A program made the position numbers and the translations under genes. Under the pieces are notes generated by a model. It did no database searches. It was given only the letters and a program-made list of their open reading frames with translations, and had not been told where the DNA came from. Positions 10,857 through 53,704 of a DNA stretch of 64,000 nt are shown in pieces. Numbering within the stretch: the stretch's first letter is position 1; each line of letters opens with the position of its first letter. Source of the DNA: Syntrophales bacterium (GTDB taxonomy: Bacteria; Desulfobacterota; Syntrophia; Syntrophales; UBA2192); NCBI GenBank assembly GCA_035450185.1, contig DAOTMG010000003.1:65562-129561 (forward strand). The letters are read 5' to 3'.

Positions 10857-11357
10857 ATGGAAGAAGAAATAAAACTCGAGAGGGACTTCCGGGAGAGGAG
10901 TCGCTCACACATCGAGCATCGGGATCGTGAGGGAGAAAGGCCCAACGAGAAGAGCCTTCATCGAGGGGTCGGCGAACCCGTCCGTTACGGCGTCCCTGGC
11001 GGAATCAAAAAGTTCTACAGGGTGGAGCCCGAAGGGGAGCCCGCGGCGTCTTTCGACCGCATCGTCGCCGCTCCGGCGGGCTGAATGATGGGCGCACTGG
11101 CCATGGTGATGGCCGAAAAAAAGGTCGCGACACCGGAGGATCGCTATCGGGCGGGCATGGAAGGGGACATCGAAGCCGTCAACAACGTCCTCAAGATCAC
11201 AGGGATCCGGATGAAACGTCACCTCAGGGTGTCCCGGGACAAGGTTGCCGACGCGCGGAAGCCTTTCTCAATCTGCATCCGGCACTGCACGGCGGCGCAG
11301 AGCGTCATGAACTCCATCGAGATCAAGGACGAGCTCGTGATCGAGGAAAAGGCCTGA
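10857..11357 (+). CDS. OsmC/Ohr-family peroxiredoxin-like protein with in-frame TGA (candidate selenocysteine at 11082-11084)
   Basis: ORFs 10857..11084 and 11085..11357 share a frame and are separated only by TGA. OsmC-like similarity spans the junction: AAPAG-U-MMGALAMV aligns with E. coli OsmC AAHAA-C-FSMALSL, and the second Cys IRHCTAAQSV with AGCPVSQVL. A hairpin lies 17 nt downstream of the UGA. Confidence 0.65.
11099..11114 (+). promoter_or_regulatory. Candidate bacterial SECIS stem-loop
   Basis: GGCCAT-GGTG-ATGGCC perfect 6-bp stem with a G-rich apical loop 23-26 nt after the UGA. Confidence 0.4.
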
Positions 11358-11732: not shown

Positions 11733-12746
11733 GTGCTGAAGGAAGCCCTTCTGTACGATACGCTTGAAGAAAACCGGGTCTCCTGCCGTCTCTGCAGTCA
11801 CCGATGCCGGATCAGTGACGGGAAATTCGGAGTCTGCAGCGTCCGGGAAAACAGGGGCGGCACGCTCTACACCCATGTCTACGGTCGACTGATCGCGCAG
11901 AACCTGGACCCCATTGAGAAAAAACCCCTCTACCATTTCCTGCCGGGTTCCACGTCCTACTCCATCGCGACCATGGGGTGCAATTTCCGCTGTGACTTCT
12001 GCCAGAACTGGCAGATCTCCCAGGTCGCGGAGGCCGATCCCCTCGGTGTGCGGGGCCGGGATGTAAAACCCGAGGAGGTCGTCCGGCAGGCGAAGGCCGC
12101 CGGCTCGAAGAGCATTTCCTACACCTACACGGAGCCCACCATCTATTTCGAGTTCGCGTACGACTGCGCGAGGATCGCGAAGGCGGAGGGTCTCTACAAT
12201 GTTTTCGTCACCAACGGCTACATGACGCAAGAAATGCTCGGGATGATCCGTCCTTTTCTCGATGCCGCCAACGTGGACCTGAAATCCTTCCGCAATGATT
12301 TCTACAAACGGCTGTGCAAGGCCCGCCTTCAGCCCGTGCTGGACAATATCAAAACGATGAATGAGATGGGGGTCTGGATCGAGGTCACGACTCTCGTCGT
12401 CCCCGGACAGAACGACTCCGAGGCGGAACTGAAGGACATCGCGGCCTACCTCGCCTCCGTTGATGTCGGCATCCCATGGCACATCAGCCGGTTTCATCCG
12501 CAGTACAGGATGAACCATCTGGAGTCCACCCCCATGAAGATCCTCAACCGTGCCTACGAGATCGGAAGGGAGGCAGGCCTTCGCTACGTATACCTGGGCA
12601 ACGTCGCCGGGAAGCTGAACCACACTTACTGCTACCGCTGCGGCAATCTTCTCATCGAACGGGCCGGTTTCTCAGTGAGGAGGTATGAGGCGGAAGGCGG
12701 AAAATGCCCGAGGTGCGGGACGGTCCAGGCGGGGGTGGGACTATAG
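11733..12746 (+). CDS. AmmeMemoRadiSam-system-type radical SAM enzyme (PFL-activase-like)
   Basis: N-terminal CRLCSHRC..GVC Cys cluster, GCNFRCDFCQNW (CX3CX2C), C-terminal CYRCG..CPRCG. GTG start. No AMMECR1 or Memo partner in the window. Confidence 0.75.
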   Translation: MLKEALLYDTLEENRVSCRLCSHRCRISDGKFGVCSVRENRGGTLYTHVYGRLIAQNLDPIEKKPLYHFLPGSTSYSIATMGCNFRCDFCQNWQISQVAEADPLGVRGRDVKPEEVVRQAKAAGSKSISYTYTEPTIYFEFAYDCARIAKAEGLYNVFVTNGYMTQEMLGMIRPFLDAANVDLKSFRNDFYKRLCKARLQPVLDNIKTMNEMGVWIEVTTLVVPGQNDSEAELKDIAAYLASVDVGIPWHISRFHPQYRMNHLESTPMKILNRAYEIGREAGLRYVYLGNVAGKLNHTYCYRCGNLLIERAGFSVRRYEAEGGKCPRCGTVQAGVGL

Positions 12747-12895: not shown

Positions 12896-13600
12896 TTATC
12901 CAAGGTCTTTCATGGCCGTCTTGAAGATCCGGAGGGCCTCTTCTTCGCTCACATCGGTCCAGCGCTCGTAGGCGTCCGCGACGGCGAAACTCCAGCCGCC
13001 CCGGACGTTGGCGCAATACAGGCGATCCACTTCAGCGGCCACGCGCCGGACGGCGCCTGCGCTTCCCGTCGGGACGGCGACGATGATCTCCCCCGTCCCG
13101 CTTTTCTTCAAAGCTTCCACCCCCACGAGCAGGGTGAACCCTGAGGCGAGGCCGTCATCGACCAGGATCACCCGCTCCCGGATGAGGGCCGGGTAGGACG
13201 GCTCGCCGCGGAATTTCTCGACACGGCGCTCCACCTTCCCGGTCGTGGCGGCTTTGCCCGCTTCGATCTCTTTTCCCGAAAGGCCGAGCCGGGACAGCAG
13301 ATCGCGATTCAGCCGGACCGTGCCGTCGAAGGCCACGGCGCCGTAGCCCGCTTCGGTGTTCCAGGGCAGGGTGATCTTGCTGACCACGGCCACGTCGAGC
13401 GGAAGGGAGAGTCTGCGGGCCAGGGAAGCGGCGACGGGAATTCCGCCTGCGGGTATCGCCATCACCAGTGTCCGGGACGCCCGGTAATCTTCGAGCATGC
13501 CGGCGAGGATCTCGCCGGCATGAGGCCGGTCGCGAAAGACATGGAGACGATCACGAAGCCCCGGAAGCTCGGTCACGTTTCCGGTCGTCCTGTTTTCCAT
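12896..13600 (-). CDS. Phosphoribosyltransferase-family protein
   Basis: VILVDDGLASGFT PRPP-binding motif; 234 aa, typical of the stand-alone predicted-PRTase family. Confidence 0.75.
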   Translation of the reverse strand: MENRTTGNVTELPGLRDRLHVFRDRPHAGEILAGMLEDYRASRTLVMAIPAGGIPVAASLARRLSLPLDVAVVSKITLPWNTEAGYGAVAFDGTVRLNRDLLSRLGLSGKEIEAGKAATTGKVERRVEKFRGEPSYPALIRERVILVDDGLASGFTLLVGVEALKKSGTGEIIVAVPTGSAGAVRRVAAEVDRLYCANVRGGWSFAVADAYERWTDVSEEEALRIFKTAMKDLG

Positions 13601-13678
13601 GGAGAAACCCCTTCTATCGCATCTTGCCTGAAAGGCCGTCGGTTGTTATTTTACCATGATCACAATGAAAAAAATGAA

Positions 13679-14548
13679 ATGAATATGACCGTGAAAAAAG
13701 GCAGCGGTGAATCTCCTCCGGGTACCGTCCGGATCCGCGAGGTGGAGTGCCGTTCCCTTCTGAACAAATCGGGCCTTGCCGACTATGCCGTGAACTGCTA
13801 CGCCGGATGCTCGCACGGTTGCCGCTACTGCTATGCCCGTTTCGCCACCCGATATTCCCACCCGGGCGAGTCCTGGGGTGATTTTGTCGACGTGAAGATA
13901 AACGCCCCGACGGTTCTCGAGAAGGAACTCAGGCGGAGACGTGCGGGACGGGTCTTCATGAGTTCCGTCTGTGACGGCTGGCAGCCCGCCGAGTCGGGGT
14001 ACGGCCTCTCCGGTCAATGCCTGGAAATGCTCATCCGCCGCGGGTTCCCCGTCACCATCCTGACGAAGAGCGGCCTCATCCTCCGCGATCTCGGGCTCCT
14101 TGCGGGGAAGCCGGACGTCGAACTGGGCGTGACGGTGACCGCGCTCAACGAGGATGTGAGGAAATACATCGAACCCGCGGGCGCCGCCACGGAAAGCCGC
14201 TTCCATGTCCTCGAAGAAGCCCGCCGCAGGGGGATCGAAACCTATGCCTTCGTCGGACCCCTGTTGCCCGGCCTGACGGACACGGAAGAGAACCTCTCGG
14301 GTCTCCTGAAAGCGATCCGTGAATCCGGTGTCGCCTATTTCTATCTGGATCGGTTAAACCCCCGTTTCGGTGTCTGGCCGGACGTCAAGGCACTCCTCGA
14401 AAGACACCACCCCCACCTGGTGGAGCATTGCCGCAGAATTCTTTTCAGTGCCGCCGACCGGGCCGCCTACACCGGGCGCCTGGTGTCGATGACAAGAAGG
14501 ATAGCGAGGAAGCAGGGGATCGAAGACCGGATGACCTTTTGTTTCTGA
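13679..14548 (+). CDS. Radical SAM protein, SplB/DNA-photolyase-like family
   Basis: NCYAGCSHGCRYCYA (CX3CX2C) close to the N-terminus; ~290 aa. The upstream part of ORF 13520.. overlaps the divergent promoter region. Confidence 0.7.
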   Translation: MNMTVKKGSGESPPGTVRIREVECRSLLNKSGLADYAVNCYAGCSHGCRYCYARFATRYSHPGESWGDFVDVKINAPTVLEKELRRRRAGRVFMSSVCDGWQPAESGYGLSGQCLEMLIRRGFPVTILTKSGLILRDLGLLAGKPDVELGVTVTALNEDVRKYIEPAGAATESRFHVLEEARRRGIETYAFVGPLLPGLTDTEENLSGLLKAIRESGVAYFYLDRLNPRFGVWPDVKALLERHHPHLVEHCRRILFSAADRAAYTGRLVSMTRRIARKQGIEDRMTFCF

Positions 14549-20152: not shown

Positions 20153-20359
20153 GAAGGATCGCAGGGATCAGGCCTTCGCAAGCGGAACGGCCCACCGGTC
20201 GAGCGTTCCATCCGGGCTCGTGTGCCGGTGTCCGAAGTCGTCCATGATGAACAGGCCCTTGTTCGTTTTTACTTTTACCGGGCCCGTGTAATACTTCGTG
20301 CCGGATTTGAATTGCAGATCAGGCACCTCGATATTCAGCCCGCCTAAGCCGGCGGGATC

Positions 20360-20387
20360 AAAAAGAAAAGGGGAACCTGTGCTCCCC
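20360..20387 (-). terminator. Intrinsic terminator after the HesB-like gene
   Basis: Minus strand: GGGGAGC-ACAG-GTTCCCC hairpin followed by TTTTCTTTTT. Confidence 0.6.
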
Positions 20388-20415
20388 TTTCCATGTGTTT
20401 ATTTGGATTCCCCGA

Positions 20416-20736
20416 TCAGCCGCAGGAGCCGGCGCAACCTCCGCAGCCTTCCCCCTTCTTGAGGTTCGACTCGATCATGTACCCCGAGCCCCGGGACGTT
20501 TCAATGAAATCGATCTTGACGGGCTTCACCATCTCGAAGAGTTCCTTTTCGATCATGAACGTCAGGCCGTCGACTTTGAAGGTCTCGTCCTTTTCGTTTG
20601 ACTCGTCCAGAGCCATCCCCAGCTGGGGGCCCGCTCAGCCTCCCTGGTTGAGAAAAATGCGGATAAAGGGCTTTTCTTTCCTGGACTTGAAGAATTCGGT
20701 GAGCTGTACCTCCGCTTTTGCCGTCACTTCAAACAT
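20416..20736 (-). CDS. HesB/IscA-like Fe-S assembly-type protein with in-frame TGA (candidate selenocysteine at 20637-20635)
   Basis: ATG 20736 with GGAGG SD. MFEVTAKAEVQLTEFFKSRKEKPFIRIFLNQGG-U-AGPQLGMALDE.., where IscA/HesB proteins have GGC[SA]G. C-terminal GCGGCAGSCG. The ORF track only shows the part after the TGA (20416..20616). Confidence 0.7.
20610..20636 (-). promoter_or_regulatory. Candidate SECIS-like stem-loop starting at the UGA
   Basis: u-GAGC-GGGC-CCCC-AGCU-GGGG-AUG-GCUC: two GC stems with an internal loop. Confidence 0.3.
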
Positions 20737-20902
20737 GAGGGCCTCCTGACAAAATTGGTGTCCTTAAAGTACACATTAATTATGCCTTGTCAATGTGAAT
20801 TCGATGGGGTAAAGACTTTTTTTCAGGCCGTTTTTTTTCGCCGGGCGGAGTCATCGCCGGACCGGCGGGATTGAAACGGTCCGTCGGATACGGGAGGTCA
20901 GG

Positions 20903-21899: not shown

Positions 21900-23498
21900 G
21901 TGGTTCTGCTCATTCACCCGCCCGTCGTAAAACCCTGCGAGCCTCCTGCAGGGATCGCGAGGATCGCAGGCTACCTGAGGGGACGTTGCCATATCCCCTG
22001 CGCCCTCCTCGACGCGAACCTGGCGGGACTCGAACATCTCCTCGGCAGAGACAGGCCGGCAGCCGACACCTGGACCGGACGGGCCCTTCGCAGCCGTGCT
22101 GCCCACCTGCGGACCTTGAGGGATCCCCTTACCCCCCGTCATTTTGACCGTTACAGGCGCGCCGTTTATGACCTCAACCGGCTTCTTGTCCTGTCCGACC
22201 CCTCGGGAGGACAGGTGCCGAATCTCGTCAACTTCAGGCACCGTGAACGATCCCCCCTGCGGAGCGCCGACCTGATCCGGATGGCTGAAAGGCCCGAAGA
22301 GAACCTGTTTCACGATTCCCTTCAGGGCATTGTCGACGAAGCGTTTGACCGACATCGCCCCTCCCATGCGGGGATCTCGCTCAATTATCTGAGTCAGGCC
22401 CTCTGCGCTTTCGCCCTGATCGGAATGGTGAAGAAACGCCATCCCGGCGTCCCGGTGGTCCTCGGCGGGGGCCTGGTTACATCGTGGATGCGGCGTCCCG
22501 GCTGGGAAAACCCGTTTGCCGGTCTCGTCGATCACATGGTTGCGGGACCGGCGGAAGGAAAACTCGGCGCGATTCTGGGTGCGGGAGTGGAACCTGCGAA
22601 CGATGATCGTTTCTGTCTTCCCGACTACGACGGGTTGCCCCTTGATGCCTACCTTTCACCGGGCAGGGTCCTTCCCTACAGTGCCTCGAGCGGCTGCTAC
22701 TGGGGCAGGTGTCTGTTCTGCCCCGAGAGGGCCGAGGGGAACCCCTATGTGCCGGTCCCTCCCGGACGGGCCGTCCGCGAGCTTGAAGTCCTCGTCCGTA
22801 AATTCCGCCCGGCCCTGATCCATGTCCTCGACAATGCAATGAGCCCGGCCCTGATGGAAGCCCTGGTTCGCGAGCCGCCGGGGGTCCCCTGGTATGGTTT
22901 CGCCAGGATCACGGAACACCTGGCGGACCCGGACTTCTGCGTGAGACTCAGGCGCGCAGGCTGCGTCCTGCTTCAGATCGGCCTTGAGTCGGGAGATCAA
23001 AGTGTGCTCGACACCCTGCAGAAGGGCATCCGTCTTTCGCTGGCGCAAAAGGTCCTCGGGTGCCTGAAGCAGGCGGGCATTGCCGCTTATGTCTATCTTC
23101 TCTTCGGAACACCGCCGGAAACGGCCGCGGGGGCCGAAAGAACCCTCGAGTTCACCGCGGCGATGAGGGAATGTATCGGTTATCTCAATGTCGCCATCTT
23201 CAACATGCCGGCGCAGGGGCCGGAAGCGCAAACCTTTGGGGCACTGCCTTTTTATGAGGGCGACCTTTCCCTCTACACGGATTTTGTCCATCCCGCCGGC
23301 TGGGATCGTAAATCCGTCCGTGCCTTTCTGGACAGGGAGTTCAGGAGGCACCCCTCGATCGCACCCATTCTGAGGCGCGACCCGCCCTTCTTCACGTCCA
23401 ATCACGCCCCCTTTATATCACTTTCGGATGCGACGGTTGCAACGGGTTCGCGGGGGGCGTCGATTTCGCTTGCAAAACAAGGGGAGAACAGGCTATAG
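21900..23498 (+). CDS. B12-binding-domain radical SAM protein
   Basis: N-terminal LLIHPPVVKPCEPPAGIARIAGYL (B12-binding-like) and SGCYWGRCLFCPE cluster motif with CX4CX2C spacing. GTG start. Confidence 0.7.
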   Translation: MVLLIHPPVVKPCEPPAGIARIAGYLRGRCHIPCALLDANLAGLEHLLGRDRPAADTWTGRALRSRAAHLRTLRDPLTPRHFDRYRRAVYDLNRLLVLSDPSGGQVPNLVNFRHRERSPLRSADLIRMAERPEENLFHDSLQGIVDEAFDRHRPSHAGISLNYLSQALCAFALIGMVKKRHPGVPVVLGGGLVTSWMRRPGWENPFAGLVDHMVAGPAEGKLGAILGAGVEPANDDRFCLPDYDGLPLDAYLSPGRVLPYSASSGCYWGRCLFCPERAEGNPYVPVPPGRAVRELEVLVRKFRPALIHVLDNAMSPALMEALVREPPGVPWYGFARITEHLADPDFCVRLRRAGCVLLQIGLESGDQSVLDTLQKGIRLSLAQKVLGCLKQAGIAAYVYLLFGTPPETAAGAERTLEFTAAMRECIGYLNVAIFNMPAQGPEAQTFGALPFYEGDLSLYTDFVHPAGWDRKSVRAFLDREFRRHPSIAPILRRDPPFFTSNHAPFISLSDATVATGSRGASISLAKQGENRL

Positions 23499-37176: not shown

Positions 37177-38460
37177 ATGGAGAAAAACATGAAGCAAAGT
37201 GAGCGGAAGAAAAAATCCCTTTACATCAAAGAGAACCCCGAGCGCTGCACTCCTGATGCAAAGCGCCCCTCGAGCGAAGCGCCCCTCGAAGGCGGTGTTC
37301 CGCCGGCCGAGCGCTCTTCGAAGCCGGCGCACCTCGAGGGAAGCATCCCGATCTACCCCCTGAACTGCATCTACTTCTATCTGACCGAAGGGTGCAACCT
37401 CTGCTGCCGGCACTGCTGGATCCAGCCGAAGTTTCAGAACGGTGAGCGGGTGTATCCCTCGCTGGAGGTGGATCTCTTCAAATCGATTATCGATCAGGCA
37501 AAGGCCCTGGGGCTCGGCTCCGTAAAACTGACGGGCGGCGAACCGCTCCTCCATCCGCAGATCGGCGAACTTCTCGATCACATCGAAGAAGAGGGTCTCC
37601 GCCTGACGATCGAGACGAACGGCGTCCTCTGCACGCCCGCACTCGCGAGGAAGATCGCATCCTGCGCGAGCCCTTTTGTGTCCGTGAGCATCGACGGGGC
37701 GGACGCGGAGACGCACGAGTGGGTGAGAGGCGTCGCGGGGTCTTTCCGGCAGGCCGTCGACGGCGTCCGCAACCTCGTCGAGGCGGGCATCCACCCCCAG
37801 ATCATCATGACCGTCATGCGTCGCAACAGGGAACAGATCGAGGATGTGGTCCGTCTCGCCGAAGGGCTGAGAGCCGATTCGGTGAAATTCAACATCGTCC
37901 AGCCGACGGCCCGGGGGGAGAAGATGCACGAGACCGGGGAGACGCTGACGATCGAGGAACTGGTCGACATCGGCCGGTGGGTGGAAAACGAACTATCCGC
38001 GACCACACCCCTGCGGTTGCACTACAGTCACCCGATCGCCTTCAGACCTATGAGCAGGATGTTCGGGGAGAAAGGCGACGGGTGCGGCGTGTGCGGTATC
38101 CTGGGGATCCTCGGTGTCCTGGGAAACGGCTCTTACGCCCTTTGCGGGATCGGTGAGACGATCCCCGAGCTTGTCTTCGGCCATGCCGCCCATGACCGGC
38201 TTGCGGACATCTGGGAGAACAACGCCATTCTGAAGGAACTTCGCGAGGGGCTCCCCCACCGATTTGAGGGTATCTGCGGCGACTGCGTCATGCGGGGGAT
38301 CTGCCTGGGGAGCTGTGTGGCCCAGAACTATTACAGCTCCGGGAACCTCTGGGCGGGCTACTGGTTCTGCGAGGCGGCAAAAAAAGAGGGACTCTTCCCC
38401 GGTACACGCCTGGAAGGCGGACGAAGGATGAAACGGGTAGAAGCGAGGCCGTCCCTGTGA
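37177..38460 (+). CDS. Radical SAM/SPASM-domain maturase (PqqE/Scm-like)
   Basis: YLTEGCNLCCRHCW (CX3CX2C), GGEPLL, and C-terminal SPASM motifs CGVCG..G....C..and CGDCVMRGICLGSC (CX2CX5CX3C). ~60-aa low-complexity N-terminal extension (alternative ATG 37189). Confidence 0.85.
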   Translation: MEKNMKQSERKKKSLYIKENPERCTPDAKRPSSEAPLEGGVPPAERSSKPAHLEGSIPIYPLNCIYFYLTEGCNLCCRHCWIQPKFQNGERVYPSLEVDLFKSIIDQAKALGLGSVKLTGGEPLLHPQIGELLDHIEEEGLRLTIETNGVLCTPALARKIASCASPFVSVSIDGADAETHEWVRGVAGSFRQAVDGVRNLVEAGIHPQIIMTVMRRNREQIEDVVRLAEGLRADSVKFNIVQPTARGEKMHETGETLTIEELVDIGRWVENELSATTPLRLHYSHPIAFRPMSRMFGEKGDGCGVCGILGILGVLGNGSYALCGIGETIPELVFGHAAHDRLADIWENNAILKELREGLPHRFEGICGDCVMRGICLGSCVAQNYYSSGNLWAGYWFCEAAKKEGLFPGTRLEGGRRMKRVEARPSL

Positions 38461-38646: not shown

Positions 38647-40314
38647 ATGAAAGGCGAAGCGTTACAGGAGCATCCCGGTACTGAAAAACGGGCAGGGCAG
38701 CCGGCCGTCGGGCCGATCAGCCCGACCGCATTGCCGGCGGGGGGAGAGAGCGTTTTTTTCCGCGAATGGCTGGCCGGAAACCGTTACCCGAACCAGCTTC
38801 CCATCAGCGCGATCTGCAACAGCCGCTGCATCTTCTGCTCGAACAATCTGAACCCCTTCCCGATCGCGAGGGGCCTGTTCCGCGACATCGAGGACGTCAA
38901 GCACCAGCTGAGCCTCATGCCCCTGCACAAGGACCCCATCCGCATGAGCGACAGCCTCCCGGGCCGGATCGCCGAGGGCGAGGCCTTTCTCCACCCGAAG
39001 TTTTTCGAGATCCTCAAGCTCATCCGTCGAAAGTACCTGTCGAACAAGATCTGCTTCACCACGAATGCCGTCATGCTCGACGAGACTTTTCTGAAGGAGC
39101 TTTCCCGTTTCAGGCCCATCGAGATCAACGTCTCGATGCACTCCGCGAAACCCGAGCTCTGGGCGAAGATCTTTCGCAAGAGGCGCAGGGACGGCGAAAC
39201 CGCCATCGCTTCCCTTCCGCTTCTCCGGAAGTACAAGATGGATCTGGTCGGGACGATCGTCCCTCTGCCCCGGGTCTGCGGCTGGAACGACATCGAGAAC
39301 ACCTACGAGTACTTCGCGGCCTATGGCGCGAAGAGCATGATCCTCTACTGGCCCGGCTACACCCTGTGCGTTGCGCCGGAAACGGTTGAAAAGCTCGAGT
39401 GCCCCATGGAGGAATTCATGGAATTTTCGAGTCGCATGCGCAGCCGTTTCGAAATCCCCCTGAATCCCTACCCGGACATGCGGGCGCCGCTCACGACCCC
39501 CATCAGGGTCGTCATGGAGCGGACCCTGAAGGGAAACCTGACGAATTTCGGGGGCGCCTACCGCAGTGTGCTCTGGCTCACGTCCGAGGCCGCCCATGGC
39601 CGTATCAGTACGGCCCTGGCGGAGCGTGGAGGAGCCTTTCAGAACGAGCATCATGCCTTTGCGGTCAAGAATGAAACCTACGGAGGTAACATCATCGTCT
39701 CCGGGCTCATCATGGTGGATGATTTCATCCGGGCCGGCAGGATGGCGCTTGAGCAGTGGCCCGAGACGGAGCTCATCCTCGTGCCGAAGGAGCCCTTCGA
39801 TCAGATCTACCGGGACCTCAAGGGGGTCCCCGCATACCGGATTTCCGACGAACTCGGCAGGCCCGTGTGGGTCGTTGAGGGCTGCGGCTGTGTGAACACG
39901 CTTCTCGACAGGCCCTTCAGGAAAAAGGAGAATCAGACGCTGCAGCCCCTCATGGACGCCATGAAGTTGTTCAACGCCGGCCGGCAGGACCCTTTACAGG
40001 TCGAGAAGAGCCTCGACATGGTGAGCGCATACCCCCTGCGGGTCGGTGAGGACGATGTGAGCCGCGAAGGACTCCGGGCATCCATCCTCGGGGCGGCGGG
40101 TTTGAATGGAGGGTTGCGGCGCCCTCTGAACCAGCGCTTCGAGGTCCTCGACGAAACGCAGGCCCTCTGCCTGGAAAACTGGCCCACCGAGGATGAAGCC
40201 AGGCAGATCAGCCGGTGGACCTTCCTGGTCAAGAGAAGCGGAGAGTGGAAAATAGAACGCATCATGACCGGCGAGGTCAAAACGGACGATGACGTCTGCA
40301 GGGGCCGCTCCTGA
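38647..40314 (+). CDS. DUF512-type radical SAM protein with extra C-terminal NTF2/SnoaL-like module
   Basis: ICNSRCIFCSNN (CX3CX2C). VKNETYGGNIIVSGLIMVDDFI resembles the DUF512 FG..ITV[TS]GL.TG.D motif. No PDZ domain. The last ~130 aa end in WTFLVKRSGEWKIERIM. Confidence 0.65.
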   Translation: MKGEALQEHPGTEKRAGQPAVGPISPTALPAGGESVFFREWLAGNRYPNQLPISAICNSRCIFCSNNLNPFPIARGLFRDIEDVKHQLSLMPLHKDPIRMSDSLPGRIAEGEAFLHPKFFEILKLIRRKYLSNKICFTTNAVMLDETFLKELSRFRPIEINVSMHSAKPELWAKIFRKRRRDGETAIASLPLLRKYKMDLVGTIVPLPRVCGWNDIENTYEYFAAYGAKSMILYWPGYTLCVAPETVEKLECPMEEFMEFSSRMRSRFEIPLNPYPDMRAPLTTPIRVVMERTLKGNLTNFGGAYRSVLWLTSEAAHGRISTALAERGGAFQNEHHAFAVKNETYGGNIIVSGLIMVDDFIRAGRMALEQWPETELILVPKEPFDQIYRDLKGVPAYRISDELGRPVWVVEGCGCVNTLLDRPFRKKENQTLQPLMDAMKLFNAGRQDPLQVEKSLDMVSAYPLRVGEDDVSREGLRASILGAAGLNGGLRRPLNQRFEVLDETQALCLENWPTEDEARQISRWTFLVKRSGEWKIERIMTGEVKTDDDVCRGRS

Positions 40315-40362: not shown

Positions 40363-41316
40363 GTGAAGATTTCCGTGGTCATACCCGTGTACAACGGCGA
40401 TCGCTTTCTCCCCGAGGCGATCGAGAGCGTCCTCGGCCAGAGCCATCAGGATGTTGAAATCCTCCTTGTGGACGACGGTTCCACCGACGGAAGCCAGGGG
40501 GTTATGAAGCGCTATGCCCGCCTGGACAAACGGGTGAGATTCATCGCGCAGGAAAACCGCGGCCGTTGCGAGGCGGCCAACCGGGGCCTGGAGGAAGCCC
40601 GTTTCGACTGGGTGGCAAGGCTCGACGCCGATGATGTCTTTCTGCCGAGGAAGATCGAGAGGCAGCTTCAGTACCTTGCGGAACACCCCGGGGCCCGGGT
40701 GATCGGGACGCTCGGGTGTTTCATCAACGAGGAGGGCAGGCGCCTGGGATTCATCGGCACCGCCGGGCCCTTCGACGAGAAGGATTTCCGCAAATTTGTC
40801 GAAAACGGCGTTCCCCTCCGCTTCATCCATTCCTCCGTCCTGATGCACCGGCCAACCGTTCTCGACGCCGGCGGCTACCGGCCGGAGTTCCGCCAGGTCG
40901 AGGACACGGATCTCTGGAACCGCCTGGCGGAAAAGGGGCATCTTCTTCTCACCGTCCCCGAGCCTCTCGTTCTCTACAGGATCCACGGGAGATCCGTTTC
41001 CATCAAGAGGAAAAAGGAGCAGGAACTCTACGACGCCTGGGCCCTCGAACGCATGCGGCGGAGAAGGCGGGGAGAGGAAGAGCCGTCCCTTGCGGATTTC
41101 CTGAGCGAGCAGGAAAGACGCCCCTGGTATGAGAAGGCGGACAGCCGGCGGCGGTACACCGGGGAGGCCCTCTACCAGAAAGCGGCCCTCTGCTACGCGG
41201 AAGGCGATTTCATCGGGTTGTCATTCCTGCTGGCGGCGGCCGCCGCGGTTCATCCCTCTCACGTTCTAAGGCGGATCTACGGGAGAAAGATCTATCCCCT
41301 CCTGAGGGGATTGTAA
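40363..41316 (+). CDS. Family 2 glycosyltransferase
   Basis: KISVVIPVYNGDRFLPEAIESVLGQSHQDVEILLVDDGSTDGS and ..LDADD.. (DxD). GTG start with GGAG SD. Confidence 0.85.
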   Translation: MKISVVIPVYNGDRFLPEAIESVLGQSHQDVEILLVDDGSTDGSQGVMKRYARLDKRVRFIAQENRGRCEAANRGLEEARFDWVARLDADDVFLPRKIERQLQYLAEHPGARVIGTLGCFINEEGRRLGFIGTAGPFDEKDFRKFVENGVPLRFIHSSVLMHRPTVLDAGGYRPEFRQVEDTDLWNRLAEKGHLLLTVPEPLVLYRIHGRSVSIKRKKEQELYDAWALERMRRRRRGEEEPSLADFLSEQERRPWYEKADSRRRYTGEALYQKAALCYAEGDFIGLSFLLAAAAAVHPSHVLRRIYGRKIYPLLRGL

Positions 41317-52572: not shown

Positions 52573-53676
52573 TCAGGGTAAAGGGTCCGGGTTCTGCTGC
52601 AATTGTGACCGATCTTCCGAACTTCTCATCTTCTCAACCTCCGTCCCGTCCCCGTGCCGGCCCGAGAGCTGTCCGCAGGCGGCGAGGATGTCCTGGCCGC
52701 AGCTCTTCCGAATGACGGCCGTGTAATGGTGATCCACGAGGACTTTCCGGAACGCCTCGACGGTCTTCTTCGAGGGGGCCCGGTAGGGGGTGCCGGGGAA
52801 TTCATTGAAGGGTATGAGGTTGAACTTGCACTTCATGCCCCTGAACAGCCGGACGAGTTTTTTCGCGTGTTCCGGGGAGGCGTTGATACCGTCGATGAGG
52901 ATGTACTCGAAGGTGATCCGGCGGCGCCTCGGCATGGGGTAGTCCCGGCAGGCCCGGACCAGCGTCTCCAGCGGGTATTTCCTGTTGACGGGCATGAGGG
53001 CATTCCGCGTGGTGTCGTCCGGCGCGTTGAGGGAGACGGCGAGATTGACGCAGACGTCCTCGCCGAGTTTCAGGATCATGGGCGGGATTCCGCAGGTGGA
53101 CAGGGTGATCCGCCGGCTGGAGAAGGCCAGGCCGTCGTCGCAGTTCATGATCCGGATGGCCTTGAGGGTGTTTTCGTAGTTCGCGAGGGGCTCTCCCATG
53201 CCCATGAGGACGATGTTCCCGACCTTCTTCCCTTCCTCCATGGCAAAACGGACCCGGGTGACCTGGTCGACGATTTCCGACGGCAGAAGGTCCCTGCTGA
53301 AACCCGACAGCCCCGTCAGGCAGAACGTGCACCCCATCCGGCAGCCCGCCTGCGTGGAGACGCACTGTGTCCAGTGATTTCTCCCCGGGATGAGAACGCC
53401 CTCGATGGGAAGCCCGTCCTCCAGGCGGAAAAGGATCTTGATCGTGCCGTCCGAGGAAATCCGGGTAGCGGCGATCCGGAGGGAACTGATCCGCGCGATG
53501 TTCTTCATCTGTGCACGGAATTCCTTGGAGAGGTTCGTCATCTCGTCAAAGGAGACGGCCCCCTGCCGGTAGATCCACTTCAGGATCTGCCGCGCCCGGT
53601 ATTTTTCCTTGCCGTGTTTCGCGACGAAGGTCTCGATCTCGCCGAGAGTCATGTCCTTAATATTGGCATAGGGCAT
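52573..53676 (-). CDS. rlmN: 23S rRNA/tRNA (adenine-C2)-methyltransferase RlmN (radical SAM)
   Basis: YRARQILKWIY, CVSTQAGCRMGCTFCLTG (CX3CX2C), MGMGEPL, ..SCGQL. ATG 53676 taken (the track's TTG 53685 lies in the repeat). No clear SD. Confidence 0.85.
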   Translation of the reverse strand: MPYANIKDMTLGEIETFVAKHGKEKYRARQILKWIYRQGAVSFDEMTNLSKEFRAQMKNIARISSLRIAATRISSDGTIKILFRLEDGLPIEGVLIPGRNHWTQCVSTQAGCRMGCTFCLTGLSGFSRDLLPSEIVDQVTRVRFAMEEGKKVGNIVLMGMGEPLANYENTLKAIRIMNCDDGLAFSSRRITLSTCGIPPMILKLGEDVCVNLAVSLNAPDDTTRNALMPVNRKYPLETLVRACRDYPMPRRRRITFEYILIDGINASPEHAKKLVRLFRGMKCKFNLIPFNEFPGTPYRAPSKKTVEAFRKVLVDHHYTAVIRKSCGQDILAACGQLSGRHGDGTEVEKMRSSEDRSQLQQNPDPLP

Positions 53677-53704
53677 AAGGCGCAAGGCGCAAGGCGCAAG
53701 GCTA
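53677..53704. repeat. Heptamer array (AAGGCGC)x3 + AAGGCTA abutting the rlmN start codon
   Basis: aaggcgc aaggcgc aaggcgc aaggcta, immediately 5' (gene sense) of the rlmN ATG. Confidence 0.85.

Follow-up and report, generated by a model that had tools for sequence, protein, structure and literature searches.

A predicted HesB-like selenoprotein gene with an in-frame UGA and a conserved downstream hairpin in a Syntrophales contig

Introduction

Does a small HesB-like gene on the minus strand of a Syntrophales contig end at the in-frame TGA that interrupts it, or is that codon read as selenocysteine (Sec)? The gene lies in a 64,000-nt stretch of contig DAOTMG010000003.1 (assembly GCA_035450185.1), referred to here at its full length as the window. 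A first-pass annotation made from the sequence alone had recognized a GGAGG Shine-Dalgarno (SD) sequence, an ATG at 20736, a TGA at 20637-20635 and, in the track of open reading frames (ORFs), a tail of 66 amino acids (aa), all of which we found at those positions. Its proposal that the gene encodes a 106-aa Sec protein from a published HesB-like family held up in profile scoring, in the motif around the Sec site and in the codon comparison described below. Our data indicate that the gene very probably encodes a HesB-like selenoprotein with Sec at UGA codon 34 (UGA-34); the remaining doubt about this reading concerns the Sec machinery of the source organism.

HesB-like proteins form a classical prokaryotic selenoprotein family characterized by the motif UxGP (PMC1794560, PMC13188914; the motif is given in Table 1 of PMC13188914). 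Members have been listed from Syntrophus aciditrophicus, Syntrophobacter fumaroxidans, Geobacter sulfurreducens, Desulfovibrio and others, and related Syntrophales are documented Sec users (PMC1794560). Both the family and its presence in this lineage are already known, and the window gene is an unannotated member.

Results

The 33 sense codons that precede the TGA encode MFEVTAKAEVQLTEFFKSRKEKPFIRIFLNQGG, and the frame continues after it for 72 further sense codons (AGPQLGMALDES...GEGCGGCAGSCG), beginning AGPQLGMALDE, up to an ordinary TGA stop at 20418-20416. The residues flanking the putative Sec read IFLNQGG-U-AGPQLGMALDESNEK. The mechanical ORF list for the window contains the 66-aa tail alone (20416..20616), whose ATG at 20616 stands six codons past the TGA.

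For scoring against hidden Markov models, Cys was placed at the TGA position. The complete protein then matched the NCBIfam model NF038090 ("IscA_HesB_Se") at 118.2 bits (cut-off, 85; E = 1.6e-34), well outside what chance would give, its residues 1-99 covering profile positions 1-100 of 101, and its U-A-G-P motif fits the UxGP of HesB-like selenoproteins. The broader PF01521 family was passed marginally (27.0 bits; gathering threshold, 26.3), and the protein fell far under every cut-off of the IscA, SufA and ErpA equivalog models. Since its score for TIGR01911, the archaeal-type HesB-like selenoprotein, was also under the cut-off (41.5 versus 66.35 bits), it belongs to a different subfamily from the archaeal protein. 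The best match among solved structures was the Aquifex IscA-type protein 1nwb (E = 8.6e-10, residues 2-106), and alignments with 1nwb, 2apn and E. coli IscA (1s98) place the Sec position on the Cys of GGCSG, the first cluster ligand, in agreement with the earlier claim that the TGA replaces this residue. The same annotation had expected a C-terminal CGC motif; the tail is indeed Cys-rich, but the exact motif is lacking, the residues being C98-G-G-C101 followed by C105. The pattern of three invariant cysteine ligands, C-x(about 63)-C-x-C, is not reproduced, with Sec in the first position and a tail of C98-x-x-C101-x3-C105. Such CxxC...C tails are variable in the family alignment, and by alignment the window tail corresponds to the C-x-C ligand motif of IscA/SufA without being identical to it. 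The predicted protein is a HesB-like selenoprotein with an A-type Fe-S carrier fold, in which Sec would replace the first cluster-ligating Cys.

A comparison of homologous genes bears directly on the codon itself. Protein searches returned two classes of matches, full-length proteins of about 105 aa and at least 14 clusters of 66-68-aa tails, and 85 loci from genomes and metagenomes were fetched for the codon comparison. Among 84 motif-matched homologous genes, the UGA column held TGA in 82 and TGC in two. Two genes outside the motif search, in loci L050 and L005, the latter from the Firmicute Anaeromonas and 30% identical in protein sequence, also have TGA, and all 88 TGA-type loci fetched retain it. 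Seven distinct Cys-type relatives have TGC or TGT in this column, so the alignment with Cys homologues that the first-pass annotation had called for came out in its favor.

The simplest alternative is that the TGA is a true stop, with the 66-aa tail alone made from ATG 20616, possibly alongside a separate 33-aa peptide, and with the upstream frame decayed into a pseudogene. All gene callers do give 33 + 66 aa, and an ATG lies six codons past the TGA. However, this ATG is the invariant Met of the GPxLGMALDE motif and lacks an SD sequence of its own, and the 66-aa tail alone matched zero Pfam families, whereas the fused protein matches NF038090 end to end. Across about 80 lineages, the peptide encoded by the 33 upstream codons is conserved, and variation falls preferentially on third positions. 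An ATG stands exactly 33 codons before the TGA in 71 of 80 distinct homologues, none of these 71 in-register genes has an in-frame stop within the 33 codons, and the entropy at codon positions 1, 2 and 3 is 0.87, 0.56 and 1.54 bits upstream of the TGA, compared with 0.80, 0.49 and 1.56 bits downstream. Between the window and its closest relative, L006, these upstream codons carry nine synonymous-only and four amino acid changes. The coding-type entropy and the conservation of the upstream codons thus exclude an internal start behind an unconserved leader, a case that the first-pass annotation had itself named as fatal to its proposal. Nor would a pseudogene retain TGA in precisely the Cys column, as 82 of the 84 genes do. 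We therefore regard termination at the TGA as extremely improbable.

Even less credible, and in our view close to negligible, is an assembly or sequencing error within an ordinary Cys-encoding iscA-like gene. The observed codon is a single substitution away from TGC and TGT, but the identical locus, TGA included, has been assembled independently from different samples (0 to 1 difference across 345 nt in L086-L088; 22 contigs were read), and TGA is also found in about 80 diverged relatives.

Gene callers split the HesB-like gene into 33 + 66 aa in every assembly examined, in line with the under-annotation by standard ORF callers that had been suspected and with the clusters of tails noted above. 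An identical tail protein is deposited in GenBank as a "hypothetical protein" of a Syntrophales metagenome-assembled genome, and another Syntrophales genome has an 81%-identical gene. Both Cys and W occur at the TGA column of the protein alignment, each in a subset of the relatives; full-length database members with Trp at the Sec position are P0028, P0030, P0031, P0033, P0034, P0036-P0041 and P0043. The DNA of one of these, P0037 (locus L100, 328-330), reads TGA, and the database W residues are accordingly mistranslations by metagenome pipelines that called genes under a code with TGA as Trp.

These W entries could otherwise be taken to favor a third alternative, in which UGA is reassigned to Trp or Gly (code 4 or 25) or read through by near-cognate Cys or Trp insertion, yielding a full-length protein without selenium, and the window, in which no Sec machinery was shown, could be cited to the same effect. 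As the L100 codon demonstrates, however, the W residues are mistranslated TGA codons. TGA also terminates the HesB-like gene itself, its ABC-F and ApbA neighbors and most long frames of this 60% GC window, where it is the commonest stop. The homologues have Cys, the standard counterpart of Sec, at the column; the lineage is known as selenoprotein-rich; and a hairpin that fits the model of a Sec insertion sequence (SECIS), described next, is conserved in the TGA-containing genes only. Reassignment or selenium-independent readthrough is accordingly very unlikely.

The recoding signal was sought in a gapless alignment of 77 distinct TGA-type sequences, with the seven distinct Cys-type genes as a control. 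Codons +7 to +11 after the UGA (AUG GCU CUG GAY GAG) are nucleotide-invariant in the TGA-type set, synonymous sites included: Ala+8 is GCT, Leu+9 is CTG and Glu+11 is GAG in 77/77 each. Other codons vary freely in the same set, such as Asp+16 (39 GAC, 38 GAT), Glu+17 (44 GAG, 25 GAA) and Gly-1 (36 GGC, 35 GGG), and the third-position entropy in the invariant zone is half of that in the rest of the gene. This invariance was not produced by the search, since the search pattern had been set at the amino acid level. The Cys-type genes encode the same amino acids with GCG, GCA or GCC (never GCT), CTT or CTG, and GAA or GAG (Fisher tests of codon use, p 3e-9 to 4e-4), and the contrast is also seen between tandem Cys and Sec paralogs within one genome (L057, L098).

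The invariant codons form a hairpin, termed hairpin 2, whose family form is GGCUC-UGGAY-GAGYC. All five core pairs are possible in 75/77 TGA-type sequences versus 0/7 Cys-type genes (p = 8e-9), and the hairpin, paired in 96.5% of cells, is also the consensus fold given by RNAalifold. Its loop is UGGAU in 65 sequences and UGGAC in 12, and one pair alternates between G-C and G-U (46 to 31). The two divergent genes carry independent compensatory versions: GGCCC-UGGAC-GGGCC in L050 (2100-2140), where C-G replaces U27-A35 and a Glu becomes Gly as a consequence, and UUGCUC-UGGAU-GAGCAA in L005 (3100-3140), where G24-C38 has become U-A. Loop and spacing to the UGA are preserved in both, the low-GC Firmicute with its protein identity of 30% included. 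This suggests that gene and putative SECIS are passed on as a single module, by descent or by transfer. With the first 12-15 nt blocked, as they would be covered by a ribosome positioned on the UGA, hairpin 2 folds at -7.8 kcal/mol. In the bacterial SECIS (bSECIS) model, the apical loop has 3-9 nt and the upper stem 4-16 bp, a G is found among the first two loop nucleotides, in most cases with G or U after it, the loop is 16-37 nt from the UGA and the minimum free energy (MFE) is at most -7.5 kcal/mol (PMC13188914). Hairpin 2 agrees with it throughout, with a 5-nt loop (UGGAC), a 5-6-bp stem (6 bp in the window), GG at loop positions 2 and 3, a distance of 25 nt and the above-mentioned energy. 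On this comparative footing, we propose hairpin 2 as the apical hairpin of the SECIS, where SelB would be expected to bind.

A second structure, hairpin 1, lies between the UGA and hairpin 2. The pair that closes it lies between the wobble bases of two Gly codons and shows covariation (GC 40, GU 10, CG 7, UG 5, AU 2, UA 2), and all four of its pairs are possible in 63/77 TGA-type sequences versus 0/7 Cys-type genes (p = 3e-5). Its spacing of 9-10 nt from the UGA falls outside the 16-37 nt range and is too near the UGA for a SelB-binding loop; hairpin 1 is therefore better viewed as a probable accessory structure specific to the Sec-type genes. The first-pass annotation had read two stems as beginning at the UGA. 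The CCCC/GGGG hairpin is real and covarying, as just described. The GAGC/GCUC lower stem was rejected as a conserved element, the pair at columns 13-35 forming in 28/77 sequences. Hairpin 2 had gone unmentioned. The GAGC/GCUC stem uses the 5' arm of hairpin 2, making the two folds mutually exclusive, and the MFE structure of the window RNA, at -14.4 kcal/mol, has GAGC/GCUC enclosing CCCC-AGCU-GGGG.

Several observations weigh against the Sec reading or against hairpin 2 as its signal. The folding energies of the window hairpins are no better than those of shuffled sequences (z = -0.66 and +0.39); these thermodynamic scores are uninformative, and a comparative analysis was hence needed. In the free window RNA, hairpin 1 combined with GAGC/GCUC is slightly more stable than hairpin 1 combined with hairpin 2 (-14.4 versus -13.9 kcal/mol). 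Rfam returned no SECIS or other credible family, either at gathering thresholds over the whole window or under permissive settings over 20350-20850, and the Cys-type control is limited to seven distinct genes. No tRNA-Sec, selA, selB or selD was found in the 64-kb window by SelA/SelB/SelD motif greps, ARAGORN and Rfam; the search for Sec machinery also included Pfam annotation of 30 large ORFs and the precomputed annotation of 10.4-30.6 kb. The view that the source organism decodes Sec thus draws on its lineage and on comparison with relatives.

Table 1. Positions of the HesB-like gene, its signals and the OsmC-like gene in the window
Feature	Position	Strand	Description
Shine-Dalgarno sequence GGAGG	20742..20746	-	ATG follows after 5 nt; read from sequence
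Predicted HesB-like selenoprotein, coding sequence (CDS)	20416..20736	-	106 codons plus TGA stop (20418-20416); translation
Start codon ATG	20736-20734	-	Read directly from sequence
In-frame UGA	20635..20637	-	Codon 34, U of the UxGP motif; aligned with the first cluster-ligand Cys of A-type carriers
Hairpin 1	20617..20629	-	CCCC / GGGG around a 4-5-nt loop; nt 9-21 counted from U of UGA
Hairpin 2 (candidate SECIS hairpin)	20599..20615	-	U GGCUC [UGGAC] GAGUC A; nt 23-39; loop 20609-20605, 25 nt after UGA
C-terminal Cys-rich tail	20422..20445	-	C98-G-G-C101-A-G-S-C105; translation, family alignment and 1nwb tail alignment
Intrinsic terminator	20365..20392	-	Terminator scan: 12-bp stem, 4-nt loop, T-run; 24 nt past the stop codon
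OsmC-like gene	10857-11357	+	Other Sec candidate of the first-pass annotation; TGA 11082-11084

The signature TGA-N3-GGNCCN-N10-ATGGCTCTGGAYGAG occurs in all 88 fetched TGA-type loci that span this stretch and is absent from 12 Cys-only or outlier loci. It misses the divergent TGA genes of L005 and L050 and is specific without being exhaustive. Within the 64-kb window, the exact hairpin-2 motif occurs once. A further site with one mismatch, ATGGCTCTGGCCGAG at 40432-40446 on the minus strand, runs antisense to a family-2 glycosyltransferase gene (40363-41316, plus strand) and is probably a chance match, because 0.35 matches were expected at two or fewer mismatches and three were found, including the true one. 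A window-wide scan for TGA-interrupted ORFs gave 177 candidates, almost all of them spurious at 60% GC, and was unusable.

The OsmC-like gene presents a related case in the same window. With Cys at the site, its protein scores 27.4 bits for PF02566 (cut-off, 27.5). The site is TGA in the window and in L086 (AG-U-MMGA) and TGC in the near-identical strains L087 (19272-19772, minus strand) and L088 (16011-16511, minus strand), which read AG-C-LKGT. Four substitutions fall within 11 nt, the surrounding DNA is roughly 99% identical, and the HesB-like gene is identical across these strains. This split looks like a Sec/Cys polymorphism inside one species. A candidate hairpin 18 nt past the UGA (GGCCA-UGGUGA-UGGCC, -8.3 kcal/mol), whose loop also begins with UGG, does not differ between the strains.

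With an intrinsic terminator behind its stop codon, the HesB-like gene is a self-contained unit. A promoter scan upstream of it gave no sigma-70 match; a perfect -35 hexamer, TTGACA, is present at 20793-20788 (minus strand), 52 nt upstream of the start codon, with no acceptable -10 hexamer 16-18 nt past it. The gene lies outside any isc, suf or nif operon. Its neighbors in the window encode an ApbA-type reductase, radical SAM enzymes, a histidine kinase/response regulator, an ABC-F ATPase and a cNMP-binding protein, and housekeeping genes elsewhere in the window include those for MutS, LeuA-like and aconitase-family proteins, ETF, acyl-CoA dehydrogenase and RlmN. Across 78 loci, the recurrent neighbors were Ham1/RdgB (27/72), Ala_racemase_N-type (16/66), TPR (13) and ABC-F (11) genes, a lineage-specific synteny with housekeeping genes in which no Fe-S assembly or functional partner appeared. 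The window is unusually rich in radical SAM genes, with at least six that include rlmN (11733-12746, 13520-14548, 21900-23498, 37177-38460, 38647-40314 and 52573-53685). This richness would fit a high demand for Fe-S clusters.

Cys-type homologues have surroundings of their own. In three loci, a Cys-type paralog lies directly upstream of the Sec-type paralog (L057, 1493-2330; L098, 1063-2226; L099, 819-1769), and in L098 and L099 the pair sits behind an ArsR-type (HTH_5/HTH_20) regulator; such tandem paralogs could be a selenium- or metal-responsive pair of Cys and Sec isoforms. Other Cys-type homologues adjoin genes for Fe-S enzymes, namely HGD-D 2-hydroxyacyl-CoA dehydratase and its BcrAD/BadFG-type activator (L089, 3001-5981; L095-L097, 286-1818), neighbors that may hint at client proteins of this carrier subfamily.

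Discussion

If the UGA is decoded as proposed, translation would start at ATG 20736 and the ribosome would reach UGA-34 (20637-20635), at which point the mRNA just outside the entry channel could fold the hairpin GGCUC-UGGAC-GAGUC (20615-20599). With the ribosome on the UGA, hairpin 2 alone of the two competing folds can form, and it would recruit SelB-GTP-Sec-tRNA(Sec), so that selenocysteine is inserted and termination is avoided. Translation would then proceed as far as the regular stop codon, the TGA at 20418. Most likely, the product handles iron or Fe-S clusters or has a redox role, making use of the Sec and the C-terminal cysteines.

A more elaborate version of this scheme, which we consider rather unlikely, is a bipartite recoding signal, in which hairpin 1 would act in Sec insertion, for example by pausing the ribosome or positioning hairpin 2. 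The UGA stem of Ala-type genes could then mask the 5' side of hairpin 2 up to the moment at which the ribosome unwinds that stem. Were it true, exposure of the SelB site would be coupled to the arrival of the ribosome, and the near-invariant 15-nt hairpin 2, found from Desulfobacterota to a Firmicute, would mark a mobile module of gene plus SECIS.

What is added here to a known family is a DNA-level case for hairpin 2 as its probable family-wide SECIS, together with a clean contrast between TGA-type and Cys-type genes. The value of this is mostly one of annotation: where the UGA is taken as a stop, truncated tails enter the databases, and other pipelines store a spurious Trp. Together, the HesB-like and OsmC-like genes flag the organism as a likely Sec user, in which other genes may be truncated likewise. 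Why the scaffold of an A-type carrier would use a Sec ligand is a modest question that the family raises.

Compared with known systems, the window protein is closest to the bacterial HesB-like family (NF038090), with which it shares a length of about 105 aa, UxGP, Sec aligned with the first ligand Cys, the Syntrophales lineage and Cys homologues; nothing substantive differs, and the window copy had merely not been annotated as a selenoprotein. The archaeal protein of TIGR01911 is likewise small, related to IscA/HesB and has Sec at the same UxGP position. In its member from Methanococcus maripaludis, MMJJ_08070, Sec was confirmed by 75Se labelling; what the protein does "is not clear", and nitrogen fixation was unimpaired in a disruption mutant (PMC11097638). 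The archaeal SECIS lies in the 3' untranslated region, whereas the SECIS candidate of the window is inside the CDS, just past the UGA. IscA, SufA and ErpA (PF01521; 1nwb, 2apn, 1s98, 2d2a) share the fold family by sequence, with the Sec aligned on the first-ligand Cys of GGCSG, but the window protein differs from them in its predicted Sec as first ligand, in having CGGC...C and not C-x-C, in its equivalog scores below cut-off and in its location outside isc, suf and nif operons. Finally, hairpin 2 resembles the bSECISearch model, whose prototype is E. coli fdhF, in lying within the CDS downstream of the UGA and in loop, stem, G, spacing and energy. Two features set the window apart from this model: an extra covarying, Sec-specific hairpin 1 between the UGA and the SelB-type hairpin, and, in Ala-type genes including that of the window, an alternative stem containing the UGA that competes with hairpin 2.

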